Source: Planctomycetaceae bacterium
GTDB lineage: Bacteria > Planctomycetota > Phycisphaerae > Phycisphaerales > SM1A02
Direction of reading: 5' to 3'
Assembly: GCA_002684855.1 (NCBI GenBank)
Contig: NYWD01000037.1
Coordinates: 1,671 to 65,670 of the forward strand
DNA length: 64,000 bases
This document shows, in pieces, positions 730 to 20,716 of the stretch (position 1 is the first letter of the stretch; every line of letters begins with the position of its first letter). Under the pieces are notes generated by a model that made no database searches, had not been told where the DNA came from, and saw only the letters and a list, made by a program, of their open reading frames with translations. The position numbers and the translations under genes are program-made.

Positions 730-1253
730 GAGGACCCGCGGCGGACCCGCGGCGTCGATCGAACCCGCGGCCCCGGTGCCGCCGTCGGTCCTCGAGCGGG
801 ATCCTGCACGGATCCTGGAGATGCGGACGTTCGAGGATTTCAAGGGAGAGCGGCTCCAGCGACTCGAGGGATCGACGAGGCATCACCCCGTCCAGTGACC
901 CGACCAGTCCGTCCATCGGTGCCGATGCGGCGATCGGCCGAGAAAAAAAGGCCCGGCTGAGGCAAGCCTCGAACCGAGCCCTTCCGGGGGCGAAATTGGG
1001 TCGCGGTCGAATCCAAACGACTCGGACGAGCGACATCGGAATGCTAGCATGCATCGGTCCGTTGGCAACGCATCGCCTCCCGTAAACCGGAATTTTCCGC
1101 CTTCCAGCCCATGCGGCGTCGGTCAGGCGCCTCCCGAAACTACCCATCTTCACAATCAGCCGCGTCTCGGACCAACCCCGATCCGGATTCCCCGCGACGT
1201 CCGTCACGGGCGGCCCGCGGGACCGAACGCGAGCCTCGGAAGCAACCGCCGCC

Positions 1254-4043: not shown

Positions 4044-4958
4044 TCAGCCGCCGGTCGCCGTCGCATCGCCTCTGACGAACTCGATCGAATCGACGGGCGG
4101 CACCAGCCCCGCCTCGGTCGCTTCCTCGAACAGCCGGCGCACCGCCAGGAGCCCGCGAACGCCCGCATCCACCGTCAGCCGGTTCACGTAGAGCTCGATG
4201 AAACGATCCGCGGTGGCATGATCGATCCCGCGACCGAATCCCATCGCGTACTCGACCGAGCGGGTCCAGTGCTCGAGGGCGTGGGCGATGCTCCGTTCGA
4301 GCAGGCCGGCGATCTCCTCCAGCGTGCCGACGCCGTACGCGGTCTCGAGATCGCGGCGAACGACGTTCAGGCCGAGCGGGAGCGGGCCGCCGGTCCGTCG
4401 GCCCCACCAGTCGCCGAGGTCCTCGAGGAGATGCAGACCGTCGTCGGCGAAGGTCAGCTGCCCCTCGTGGATGACGACGCCCGCGTCGACCTCGCCGGCG
4501 AGCACGCGGTCGCCGACCTCCTCGAACGGGACCTCGACCTGTTCGTGATCGATGCCCCGCATTCTCAGTCCGAGGGTCAGCGCCGCGGTGGTGCGGCGAC
4601 CGGGAGTCGCGATCCGCGGCCGAGCCGCGGCGAACCGCTCCCAGGACAGGTCGGTGGCCGCCACCAGTTTCGGTCCGTAACCCTCGCCCATGGACGACCC
4701 GCAGGCCGTGATCGCGTACCGGTCCGCGACGCGCGGGAACTGGCCGCAGCTCAGGGCCGTGATCTCCAACAGGTCGGTGTCGGCCTCGGCGCGTCGGTTC
4801 GCCGCCTCGATGTCGATCTCGACCTGTTCGAAACGGAATCTCGACGAGGGGATCGCCGGCGGCTCGCCGTCGATTCCGAAGAGCGGCCACCACATGAAGG
4901 CGTCGTCGGGATCCGGGCTGTGACCCAGGCGAAGGACGATGGGGTTCGAGTTCGACAT
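4044..4958 (-). CDS. MqnA/MqnD-family menaquinone (futalosine pathway) protein, probably 1,4-dihydroxy-6-naphthoate synthase
   Basis: The internal ATG at 4958 gives MSNSNPIVLRLGHSPDPDDAFMWWPLF..., the SPDxDDAFMF signature of the MqnD/COG2107-type family. The upstream part of the ORF is junk-like. Confidence 0.7.
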   Translation of the reverse strand: MSNSNPIVLRLGHSPDPDDAFMWWPLFGIDGEPPAIPSSRFRFEQVEIDIEAANRRAEADTDLLEITALSCGQFPRVADRYAITACGSSMGEGYGPKLVAATDLSWERFAAARPRIATPGRRTTAALTLGLRMRGIDHEQVEVPFEEVGDRVLAGEVDAGVVIHEGQLTFADDGLHLLEDLGDWWGRRTGGPLPLGLNVVRRDLETAYGVGTLEEIAGLLERSIAHALEHWTRSVEYAMGFGRGIDHATADRFIELYVNRLTVDAGVRGLLAVRRLFEEATEAGLVPPVDSIEFVRGDATATGG

Positions 4959-17713: not shown

Positions 17714-18337
17714 TCAGTCGATCGGACGCCGTTCGGTGATGGCGTCCGCGAGCACCGCCCGACTCGCGTACTCGATCTGGGAGCCCGATGGCAGACCCCG
17801 GGCGAGCCGGGTGGTCGAGATCCCGAGTCGACGGGCCTCCTCGGCGATGTGGAGCGCGGTGGTGTCGCCCTCCATGTCCGGATTGAGCCCGAGGACGATC
17901 TCCCGGACCGGGATGCCCCGGGCGTTCCGTCCCGACTCCCGGAGCCGGGCGATCAGGTCGTCCACGGTCAGGCCGTCGGGCCCCACCCCGTCGAGGGGAT
18001 CCAGTCGACCGAGGAGGACGTGGTACACGCCGGCATGCATGCCGGTCTGCTCGAGGCTGATCAGGTCGCGAGGTTGCTCCACGACGAGGACGACCGAGGC
18101 GTCGCGCTTCGGATCGCTGCAGATCGGACAGGGATCGACGTCGGCCAGGTTCCAGCAGATCGAGCAGTGCCGGACCGACTCCTTCACCCGCGTGATCGAG
18201 CGGGCGAGTCCGAGCGCCTCGTCACTGGAACTCTTCAGCACGAAGAAGGCGAGCCGCTCGGCGCTCCGGCGGCCGATGCCGGGAAGCCGCGCAAACTCGT
18301 CGATGAGGTTCGAAACGCTTTCGGGGTACGCGGCCAT
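17714..18337 (-). CDS. recR: recombination protein RecR
   Basis: LPGIGRRSAERLAFF helix-hairpin-helix, CSICWNL...CPIC zinc finger and a Toprim region. GAGGAGG Shine-Dalgarno upstream. Confidence 0.92.
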   Translation of the reverse strand: MAAYPESVSNLIDEFARLPGIGRRSAERLAFFVLKSSSDEALGLARSITRVKESVRHCSICWNLADVDPCPICSDPKRDASVVLVVEQPRDLISLEQTGMHAGVYHVLLGRLDPLDGVGPDGLTVDDLIARLRESGRNARGIPVREIVLGLNPDMEGDTTALHIAEEARRLGISTTRLARGLPSGSQIEYASRAVLADAITERRPID

Positions 18338-18365: not shown

Positions 18366-18743
18366 TCACATGAGGCCCGGCAGACCGCCGGGGGGAAGCG
18401 GGATGTTCAGTTCCGAGGCGACCGACTTCAGGCGCTCCCCGATCATGTCCTGCGCCCGCTCGAGCGCCGCGTTCACGGCGCTCGCGATGAGGTCCTCGGC
18501 CATCCCGCGATCGGTCTCCTCCCCGTCCTTGACGAGGATCGCGAGCATGACCGGATCGACGTCGATCGATCGGATCCGCATCTTTCCGTCGGCCACCGCG
18601 GTCACCGCCCCACCGCCGACCTGCGCCTCGACCGTCGTCTCCGCCAGTTCGGCGCGAGCCTGTTCGAGCCGCTCCTTGATCCGGGGGAGGTCCTTCATGA
18701 GACCACCGAGGCCCGCCATTCCCTTCAGTGCATCGAACATCAT
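18366..18743 (-). CDS. ybaB: YbaB/EbfC nucleoid-associated protein
   Basis: ATG at 18743 (MMFDALKGMAGLGGLMKDLPRIKERLEQ...), 125 aa. The start overlaps the dnaX stop (ATGA). Confidence 0.85.
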   Translation of the reverse strand: MMFDALKGMAGLGGLMKDLPRIKERLEQARAELAETTVEAQVGGGAVTAVADGKMRIRSIDVDPVMLAILVKDGEETDRGMAEDLIASAVNAALERAQDMIGERLKSVASELNIPLPPGGLPGLM

Positions 18744-20551
18744 TCTTCCTTCTCTGGCTTGACGGCGGGTTCCTCGACCTTCGGGGAACCGTCGATCCTC
18801 CTGACCTGGACCACGTGGGCGTCGAAGAGCTCCATCGCGTCCGCGACCAGCGGGTGCGATTCCACGTCGTCCTCCACGACTCGCGAGGGTGCCGAACCCC
18901 TGGTCTCTGCGCCGACGAACCCGACTCGGATGCGACGGCCGAGGGCCTCGGAGGCGAGCTCCTCGAGCGACGCCGGATGGGAGACCGTCCAGTCGGCCCC
19001 CGGAGAGGCGTCTTCCCGGCGACGGAGACGGAGATGGTCCCCTTCCAGCCGGTCGAACTCGAAGTCGGCGAGCATGGCGCGATGCCTCGGCGTGGTCGCC
19101 GCGGCCGCGAGCCGGGCCCACGGCCCCCCCGTGTCATCGCCTTCGACGCCCCGTGCCGGCTCGGGCTCGGGCGTCGACGGTGACGTCCCGGCCGCGCTGC
19201 CCGTCCCGGTCTCCCCGTCCCGCGGCACGCCACCTTCCGGGGCCGTCGCGCTCGGGACCGGAGACGCTTCGACTTCCCCGGGCGCTTCGACGACCGGGGC
19301 GGGCGTCGGAACCGCCGGCGTCGACCGGGCTCCGGAGGACGATGCGGGCTTCGACGACCGCCGGGGTTCAGCGGCGTTCAGCCTTTTTTTTTTCGTGGGG
19401 GTCGAGGCGACGGCTTCTCCCGCGAGGAGCGATGCAGCCCTTGCGAATCGTTCCGACATCGCCATCCGCGCCACCGCCGCGTCGAGGATCGCCCGAGGCG
19501 ACGCGCTCACGCGGACCCGCGCGTTCGCCGCATCGCAGAGCGCGATCATGTGGACCAGCTGCTCCGGTTCGAAGCGGGCCGCCTCTTCGACGAGGGCGGC
19601 GGCCTCCTCGGGTCCCGTACCGAGCATCTCCGGATCCGCCCCGCACGCACCGGCGGCGAGGAGCAGGCGGAATCGCTCGGCGATGCCATCGAGGGCCCGT
19701 TCGGGGGCGAGCCCCTCGCCCAGCAGCGTGGCCATCGCGCGAAGCGTTCCCCCGAGATCCCCCGTCCCGATCGCGGCAACCACCTCCCGCACGATGTCCT
19801 CCGGCGGCACGCCGAGCACCCGCTCGAGAAGCTCGGCATCCAGCCGGCCGTCCGCCGCGGCGACGATCCGTTCGAGAATGCTGAGTCCGTCCCGCATGGA
19901 ACCGTTCGCGAGACGCGCGACGCGCAGGACGACGGCTTCGTCGGACTCGATCGATTCCCGGGCCAGGACGTCGGCGAGATGGGCCGCGATGCCGGGAATC
20001 GAGATCGGACGGAAGTCGAATCGCTGGCACCGACTCTGGATGGTCGGGAGGACCTTGTGCGGCTCCGTGGTGCAGAGGATGAACTTCACATGCGAGGGAG
20101 GTTCCTCCATCGTCTTGAGCAGGGCGTTGAACGCCGCGTTCGAGAGCATGTGGACCTCGTCGATGATGTAGATCTTGAACGGCGATCGCGCGGGCCGGAT
20201 GCTCGCGTTCGCGATCAGGTCCCGGGCGTCCTGCACGCCGTTGTTGCTCGCGCCGTCGATCTCCACCACGTCCATGTCCTCGCCGCGGAGGATCGCGTCC
20301 TCGACCGCCTCCACCTCGCCGGCCGGATCGGCGGCGTTCAGGGCGCGAGCGAAGATCCTCGCCATCGAGGTCTTCCCGACCCCGCGGGTTCCGCAGAACA
20401 GGTAGGCATGGGCGGTCCGGTCCCGTTCGATCGCCCGCTCGAGCGTCTCCGCGATCGACTCCTGCCCCACCACCTCGCCGAAGGTCCTGGACCGGTAGCG
20501 TCGAGCGAGGACCTGGTAGCCGGGGACGTTTTCGGTGGCGGTTTCGGGCAT
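18740..20551 (-). CDS. dnaX: DNA polymerase III subunit tau (and possibly gamma)
   Basis: ATG at 20551. Motifs FGEVVGQE, FCGTRGVGKTS (Walker A), IIDEVHML and CTTEPHKVLPTIQSRC. A Pro/Ala/Ser-rich linker and a C-terminal domain follow. Confidence 0.9.
   Translation of the reverse strand: MPETATENVPGYQVLARRYRSRTFGEVVGQESIAETLERAIERDRTAHAYLFCGTRGVGKTSMARIFARALNAADPAGEVEAVEDAILRGEDMDVVEIDGASNNGVQDARDLIANASIRPARSPFKIYIIDEVHMLSNAAFNALLKTMEEPPSHVKFILCTTEPHKVLPTIQSRCQRFDFRPISIPGIAAHLADVLARESIESDEAVVLRVARLANGSMRDGLSILERIVAAADGRLDAELLERVLGVPPEDIVREVVAAIGTGDLGGTLRAMATLLGEGLAPERALDGIAERFRLLLAAGACGADPEMLGTGPEEAAALVEEAARFEPEQLVHMIALCDAANARVRVSASPRAILDAAVARMAMSERFARAASLLAGEAVASTPTKKKRLNAAEPRRSSKPASSSGARSTPAVPTPAPVVEAPGEVEASPVPSATAPEGGVPRDGETGTGSAAGTSPSTPEPEPARGVEGDDTGGPWARLAAAATTPRHRAMLADFEFDRLEGDHLRLRRREDASPGADWTVSHPASLEELASEALGRRIRVGFVGAETRGSAPSRVVEDDVESHPLVADAMELFDAHVVQVRRIDGSPKVEEPAVKPEKEE
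19384..19393 (-). other. A10 homopolymer inside dnaX, a candidate programmed frameshift or transcriptional-slippage site
   Basis: Coding strand reads ACG AAA AAA AAA AGG CTG. The -1 frame stops after 5 codons (TGA at 19368-19370) and the +1 frame after 1 codon (TGA at 19378-19380). Confidence 0.5.
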
Positions 20552-20594: not shown

Positions 20595-20716
20595 GCGACG
20601 TGGAGGACGGCCAGGCGATCGACGGCCCGAACGACGACGCGTATGGCTGCTGCCGTCAAGCCCTGACCAGGTTGGCGAGCCGTCCGTCCGACGGACCCGA
20701 CCGTCCTCCACGCCGC
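20595..20716 (-). ncRNA. ffs: small signal recognition particle RNA (4.5S type)
   Basis: Minus strand contains ACCUGGUCAGGGCUUGACGGCAGCAGCCAUAC, against E. coli ACCAGGUCAGGUCCGGAAGGAAGCAGCCAAGG. A 12-16 bp terminal stem (CGUGGAGGACGG / CCGUCCUCCACG) closes a hairpin of about 114-122 nt. It lies immediately upstream of dnaX, as scr does in Bacillus. Confidence 0.75.

Follow-up and report, generated by a model that had tools for sequence, protein, structure and literature searches.

The dnaX gene and its adenine run

We describe a dnaX gene on the minus strand of a 64,000-nucleotide (nt) stretch of DNA from a Planctomycetaceae bacterium (assembly GCA_002684855.1, contig NYWD01000037.1; the whole stretch is called the window hereafter), in which an uninterrupted run of ten adenines (A10) probably serves as a site of programmed recoding. 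The gene has 603 codons and a stop, from the ATG at 20551 to the TGA at 18742-18740. Its identity is secure from its sequence matches: the product is DnaX, the tau/gamma clamp-loader subunit of DNA polymerase III. It scores 354 bits against the TIGR02397 profile (dnaX_nterm), whose cut-off is 250, and its residues 29-367 match the Pfam families PF13177 (DNA_pol3_delta2, a delta-prime-like ATPase), PF22608 (lid) and PF12169 (gamma domain III). Structures of Escherichia coli gamma/tau match it at an E value of 7e-64, and the exact protein is deposited at NCBI as MAD19140.1, from a planctomycete metagenome-assembled genome (MAG).

The first AAA of the run is codon 387 counted from the ATG, at 64% of the length of the gene. 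The minus strand reads CCC ACG AAA AAA AAA AGG CTG AAC GCC GCT GAA in this region, where ACG to CTG are codons 386-391. A preliminary description of this DNA had placed the run correctly in the 603-codon gene, as a T10 on the plus strand (Table 1), and had quoted these six codons accurately; only its label for them, 387-390, was off, a trivial slip. It had also claimed that a shift into either alternative frame would end the protein at about 390-395 residues and 42 kDa, with ...KKKKAERR or ...KKKG as the last residues, and the products that we computed agree with this (Table 1). The zero frame of the window stays open for 214 codons past the run. Just 7 of 567 dnaX codon positions have a stop in each of the two alternative frames within 9 codons.

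The run stands out from its surroundings. In the window, which has 68.4% GC, it is the only A/T homopolymer of at least 8 nt, and C/G runs reach at most 7; a stretch of 64 kb would be expected to hold about 0.0004 A10/T10 runs under a first-order model and about 0.0012 under a model of independent bases. The second-longest A/T run is an A7 at 943-949. Lysine codons are AAG in 288 cases and AAA in 18 (about 6% AAA) among the 41 open reading frames (ORFs) of the window with the third-position GC signature (GC3) of real genes. Three of these 18 AAA codons are those of the dnaX run, which is the sole KKK among the 41 high-GC3 ORFs. The earlier impressions, gained by eye, that the run has no equal in the window and that lysine is mostly encoded by AAG here were thus right. 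As a side observation, the A7 at 943-949 (plus strand) lies in GAG AAA AAA AGG CCC GGC TGA, which is superficially dnaX-like but stands at the end of its gene, an ORF at 337-960.

Table 1. Coordinates of the features at the dnaX locus, in positions of the window
Feature	Position	Strand	Product or basis
dnaX coding sequence (tau, genomic zero frame)	18740..20551	-	603 aa, 64.0 kDa; profile, Pfam and structure matches
A10 slippery run (codons 387-389, AAA AAA AAA, and first base of AGG)	19384..19393	-	Read as T10 on the plus strand
TGA 1 codon after the run (+1 shift, one A fewer or two extra)	19378..19380	-	Predicted product ...TKKKG, 390 aa, 41.7 kDa
TGA 5 codons after the run (-1 shift or one extra A)	19368..19370	-	Predicted product ...TKKKKAERR, 394 aa, 42.3 kDa
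Clamp-loader core, domains I-III, codons 1-380, common to tau and the predicted gamma-like products	19412..20551	-	Pfam 29-367; AlphaFold
Disordered Pro/Ala/Ser-rich linker, codons 382-473, tau only	19133..19408	-	pLDDT <50
Folded C-terminal domain, codons 477-576, tau only; probable polymerase-binding domain V	18824..19123	-	AlphaFold models
Bacterial small signal recognition particle (SRP) RNA gene (ffs)	20606-20702	-	RF00169, 46 bits, E 4e-8

Position of the run in the protein

The Pfam boundaries and an AlphaFold2 model of the window's DnaX, built on 25 homologues, agree that a truncation at the run would fall where the preliminary description had put it, right after the ATPase core and before the linker and the C-terminal part of tau. 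In the model, two parts are folded: residues 14-376 (predicted local distance difference test score, pLDDT, mostly >85) and a separate domain at 477-576. The last helix of the core covers residues 366-376, and the Pfam match to domain III ends at residue 367. The predicted truncation lies about 10 residues past the last domain III helix, right where the disordered linker begins. Given this position, the truncated products would be the complete clamp-loader core and nothing else.

The domain that such products would lack (mean pLDDT 79) has no Pfam match in residues 477-576. Its best fold match in the PDB is domain I of DnaA (4tps_D, E 2.5e-3), and it weakly matches domain V of E. coli tau (5fku_E and 2aya, E about 0.08) and also DciA (7ykm). 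These matches are consistent with the domain being the tau-specific polymerase-binding domain, domain V, which we regard as probable. DnaA domain I, tau domain V and DciA are all domains of replication proteins, and we take their shared fold to be KH-like.

Conservation of the run and of the stops

The DNA of the closest relatives was obtained through the contigs that encode the homologous proteins (twelve homologues). All the protein homologues, from 99% to 53% identity, have KKK at position 381-391, save that in P0010, P0036 and the partial P0045 it falls outside this range solely because of length differences upstream of the motif. At the DNA level, the run is retained in all relatives of 65-95% identity (A10; A9-11 overall). 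Most of these keep the arrangement CG-A10-G(G/C)C-TGA-N7-CTGA, with flanks that are free to differ; in L173/L174 the A10 is retained and the position of the TGA is shifted. In an alignment of 11 loci (63-95% identity, mean column identity 56%), the columns of the run and of both TGAs stand out as an invariant island. GSC-TGA directly follows the run in 10 of the 11 aligned relatives, and the CTGA 10 nt past the first TGA is retained in the close ones. The preliminary description had proposed an alignment of dnaX from related genomes as a check on its idea, and the outcome is clear: both the run and the close out-of-frame stops are conserved.

The same arrangement extends across the phylum. About 19 of 24 representative genomes of Planctomycetota have a run of A7-A10 at the equivalent place in dnaX. 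They include Phycisphaerales, Sedimentisphaerales, Tepidisphaeraceae, Gemmata sp. IIL30, Pirellulales, Aporhodopirellula aestuarii, Planctomicrobium and Planctomycetaceae, among which Gemmata, with an A9, and Aporhodopirellula are cultured. The run starts at codon phase 0, 1 or 2 depending on the lineage and encodes EKKK, QKKN, IKKN or GKKKR. Since the encoded residues differ with the phase, the constraint appears to act on the nucleotides and not on the protein. Among the 80 loci with a GC content of at least 0.55, 35 have a run of A9 or longer in the 540-nt linker segment, and the remaining 338.7 kb of these loci contain no A/T run of at least 9. Almost all loci with A9-11 (41 of 42) have two frames that stop within 15 codons past the run, usually within 8, and a third that is open for at least 90 codons; two frames stopping within 15 codons occur at 12.8% of control positions. 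Together, these data are strong comparative evidence that the cassette is selected at the nucleotide level across the phylum.

The three lysines are the sole conserved residues of the linker across the 25 homologues, and one might take them for a functional basic patch, or for a chance Lys-Lys-Lys, with no role in recoding. This explanation is effectively refuted by the nucleotide patterns. The lysines are always encoded by AAA, although AAG makes up 94% of Lys codons, and the phases used by other lineages give different residues at this place. The out-of-frame stops are conserved too, and the chance expectation for the run is about 0.001 per window.

Beyond the Planctomycetota, runs of A9-A11 next to stops occupy the same place of dnaX in representatives of Bacteroidota, Fibrobacteria, Ignavibacteriota and Bdellovibrionales (L023, L038, L045, L056, L057, L060, L062, L071, L072 and L075). 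Two of these loci, from Chryseobacterium (L072 and L075), have a dnaX split in two ORFs. The run is absent from five loci of Verrucomicrobiota (L025, L036, L042, L052 and L074).

Variation in the length of the run

Some relatives carry runs of other lengths in their genomes. The run is A11 in L162 and L177/L178 and A9 in L163/L164, and in these loci the zero frame ends at once (KKKKPEPV* and KKKA*). It encodes gamma, and the frame that holds the C terminus of tau is +1 with A11 and -1 with A9. Three annotated DnaX proteins, P0041, P0043 and P0097 (388, 391 and 403 residues), end exactly at the run, with the tau C terminus in another frame. Where a run of A9 or A11 splits dnaX in a planctomycete MAG, the gene is probably intact and recoded, rather than a pseudogene or an error. 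In the window species, all the full-length members of the window protein's cluster (7 of 8), on about 18 contigs, have the in-frame form of 603 residues.

One comparison is that of L179 (A10, full-length P0029 of 571 residues) with L163/L164 (A9, P0041 of 388 residues). They differ solely in the length of the run, with no mismatch in 1566 nt upstream and 650 nt downstream (2216 nt in all). The runs start at 1567 in L179 and L163, at 1582 in L164, at 3650 in L162 and at 3197 in L177/L178. Since these appear to be assemblies of the same strain, and since P0043 (A11) is 99.7% identical to the full-length P0035, one may ask whether the run is merely a hypermutable homopolymer, i.e., a contingency locus, or an artefact of assembly, its length changing in the genome or in the sequencing and not during expression. 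We consider this improbable. Tau is the essential form, which makes an on/off switch of dnaX implausible. The A9 form is found in two independent assemblies, and so is the A11 of L177/L178, which does not look like random error, and the window species is uniform in its in-frame form. Mutability alone also fails to explain why stops are conserved in both alternative frames. Furthermore, a drift of the DNA between A9, A10 and A11 is what one would expect if slippage leaves the frame of the genome almost neutral (PMC5009743). It has been proposed that when slippage is at about 50%, a change of one base merely swaps which of the two products is the "standard" one (PMC5009743). The variation that we see, if it is a real polymorphism and not a consensus error, fits this idea.

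A probable site of transcriptional slippage

We think it rather likely that the A10 is a programmed recoding site by which one dnaX gene yields two clamp-loader subunits, most likely through slippage of the RNA polymerase. The polymerase would slip on the ten A:T pairs and produce mRNAs whose runs differ in length (A9, A10, A11 and others). Those with A10 (or A13, or A7) would give the full-length tau of 603 residues, whose linker and C-terminal domain would tie the clamp loader to the polymerase. Any other length would bring the ribosome into one of the other two frames, where it would meet a TGA 1 or 5 codons past the run. The products would then be gamma-like proteins of 390 or 394 residues, consisting of the ATPase/collar core only. 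We infer that slippage occurs, that it is transcriptional and not translational, and that the short product is used by the cell.

In E. coli, gamma arises from dnaX by a -1 ribosomal frameshift at A_AAA_AAG, with a Shine-Dalgarno-like element on the 5' side and a stem-loop on the 3' side as stimulators. A comparable event on a faithful A10 mRNA, either a -1 shift on A_AAA_AAA or sliding on the poly-A, followed by a nearby stop, could also produce a short DnaX here, in a way similar to that of E. coli without its stimulators. The heptamer A_AAA_AAA is in phase within the run, AAA is a rare codon in this DNA and could cause pausing, and some other Phycisphaerales appear to use a cassette of the E. 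coli type (see below). In addition, E. coli ribosomes can slide along successive AAA codons (PMC4363877).

Several observations favor the transcriptional route and make a ribosomal one unlikely, if still the most serious contender. The first is the conservation of stops in both non-zero frames, as a variable gain or loss of adenines would need; a pure -1 mechanism has no need of a stop in the +1 frame, yet that stop is conserved. The second is that the phase of the run varies across lineages. The third is that the A11 and A9 orthologues need opposite shifts to make tau, +1 in the former and -1 in the latter, and opposite directions in orthologues were used by Antonov et al. as a criterion for transcriptional realignment (PMC3711429).

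The fourth is the absence of stimulators of the E. coli type. Neither GGAG nor GAGG occurs in the 20 nt that precede the run, be it in the window or in 15 of 16 relatives with A9-11; the exception is L081, with GAGG at -7. RNAalifold, applied to 11 relatives, found no conserved structure near the site (-0.33 kcal/mol). Folds of single sequences gave z-scores of -0.08 to -2.3, which are mostly not significant. The percentile of the minimum free energy (MFE) of the 45 nt downstream of the run resembles the background of the locus (median 0.34 over 27 loci; Kolmogorov-Smirnov [KS] p 0.08). Between positions 18000 and 21000, a search with Rfam models revealed no frameshift element: only the SRP RNA reaches its gathering score, and the other matches, PyrR204 and CsrB, are at chance level (E 0.5-0.8).

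Two other candidates were discarded. The 45 nt upstream of the run seemed unusually structured when compared with the background of the loci (KS p 3e-6). When dinucleotide shuffles serve as the reference, this signal vanishes (mean z -0.45, p 0.05), and it hence reflects a high local GC content; in the window itself there is no upstream structure. The plus-strand T10 might also have been part of an antisense terminator. Yet a scan for a hairpin followed by the T run found none at the site, and there is no gene on the plus strand to terminate.

Some observations speak against slippage-based recoding, or against its transcriptional form. The run is missing in five dnaX loci of Planctomycetota (L020, L021, L027, L035 and L070). 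The two exact gamma sequences were not found in a collection of about 15 billion proteins, in which the full-length members of the window protein's cluster all have 603 residues; this outcome does not address the mRNA, and it adds nothing in favor of recoding. The in-phase heptamer could serve a ribosomal shift, as it trivially could in any long run. Finally, in several of the relatives taken singly, the run is followed at about 7 nt by a small hairpin, which is not significant against either shuffles or the background of the locus. On balance, the preliminary description, which had suggested a tau/gamma recoding site operating by -1 frameshifting or by transcriptional slippage, gains comparative support, and the mechanism is narrowed toward transcription, of the kind known in Thermus.

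Start of dnaX and neighboring genes

The SRP RNA gene, separated by 55 nt from the downstream dnaX start, overlaps the 5' part of a longer, GTG-initiated ORF of 661 residues. This overlap confirms that the ATG at 20551, and not the GTG, is the true start of dnaX. With YbaB and RecR encoded downstream, the window has the usual order ffs-dnaX-ybaB-recR, which we also found in L001, L003, L005 and L006.

The stop of dnaX and the start of ybaB overlap as TGATG at 18740-18742, which suggests that translation of ybaB-recR is coupled to that of tau. Ribosomes that terminate about 630 nt earlier, at one of the gamma stops, would miss this junction, so that slippage might also alter the expression of the downstream genes.

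Comparison with known dnaX recoding systems

The E. coli system and that of the window concern the same gene and the same position past domain III, with one outcome, known in E. coli and predicted here, a gamma devoid of the C-terminal domains of tau; an A-rich heptamer is in phase in both. They differ in that the window has neither the Shine-Dalgarno-like element nor a conserved 3' stem-loop, has a run of 10 nt and not a heptamer ending in G, and has a conserved stop in the +1 frame. A closer counterpart of the E. coli system appears to exist elsewhere in the Phycisphaerales. In L001, L002, L003 and L005, an A7 or A8 starts at the third codon position (X_XXY_YYZ; run starts at 4131, 1397, 4188 and 4119), preceded at 11-14 nt by GGAG(G) and closely followed by a strong hairpin (MFE percentile 0.000-0.05). 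L001 has a stop in the -1 frame only, and none of these A7/A8 cassettes matches a frameshift element of Rfam. In this small sample, the cassette looks like a ribosomal frameshift of the E. coli type.

A class that holds cassettes of both the frameshift and the slippage type would offer a compact natural system for studying how one route replaces the other. A bolder possibility, which we put forward tentatively as somewhat less probable than its opposite, is that dnaX of the Phycisphaerae switches freely among the A7 with Shine-Dalgarno-like element and hairpin, the A10 with tau in frame, and the two-ORF A9/A11 form with gamma in frame, with even strains of identical flanks differing in run length alone. 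If so, slippage would be efficient enough for the frame encoded in the genome to be in effect neutral in an essential replication gene, and transcriptional and translational recoding would interconvert on short evolutionary timescales.

Caulobacter crescentus arrives at the same end product, a DnaX without its C-terminal domains, by partial proteolysis of tau (PMC5009743). That route is post-translational and involves no slippery sequence; it would leave the conserved run and stops of the planctomycetes unexplained.

Closer to our case are the two-ORF dnaX genes with poly-A runs that Antonov et al. (2013; PMC3711429) predicted in Chlorobi, in Bacteroidetes (Flavobacteria, Cytophaga) and in the verrucomicrobium Coraliomargarita. 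They share with the window a run of the A10 type, close stops, a host of the Planctomycetes-Verrucomicrobia-Chlamydiae (PVC) or Fibrobacteres-Chlorobi-Bacteroidetes (FCB) groups and a slippage deduced from sequence. Their layout is matched exactly by the relatives L162, L163/L164 and L177/L178. The window departs from it, as tau is in frame and gamma would need slippage, which is the layout of Thermus. The data set of Antonov et al. had only 2 genomes of Planctomycetes (PMC3711429), and no planctomycete is among the species listed from its figure on poly-A dnaX genes. Our full-text searches of the literature retrieved no paper tying dnaX recoding to Planctomycetes, save for a row in a table of this survey. 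The statement of the preliminary description that such recoding was undescribed for this type of organism therefore fits the searchable literature, with the qualification that this device is established for Thermus and has been predicted for Chlorobi, Bacteroidetes and a verrucomicrobium.

The best match is the dnaX of Thermus thermophilus, in which programmed transcriptional slippage has been shown experimentally and which also has near stops in both other frames (Larsen et al. 2000, as cited in PMC1088944 and PMC5009743). Both genes have a run of adenines in the sense strand past the clamp-loader core and tau in the zero frame, and every transcript whose run length changes by other than a multiple of three leads, or would lead, to gamma. 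As expected of a site of the Thermus type, the window and its relatives combine a run of at least about 9 adenines after domain III, stops in both non-zero frames and a conservation of the nucleotides that is independent of phase. Even the letters are close: the site of Thermus is A9-GCC-TGA, that of the window A10-GGC-TGA and that of relatives A10-GCC-TGA. The two differ in the length of the run (A9 and A10), in the phylum, and in that slippage is an experimental fact in Thermus and a proposal in the window. The planctomycete cassette would thus be a device of an expected kind in a new phylum and no new kind of biology. It extends to the Planctomycetota the poly-A recoding of dnaX, which is demonstrated for Thermus and is a prediction for Chlorobi, Bacteroidetes and Verrucomicrobia, and in this phylum the run appears to be the rule and not the exception.

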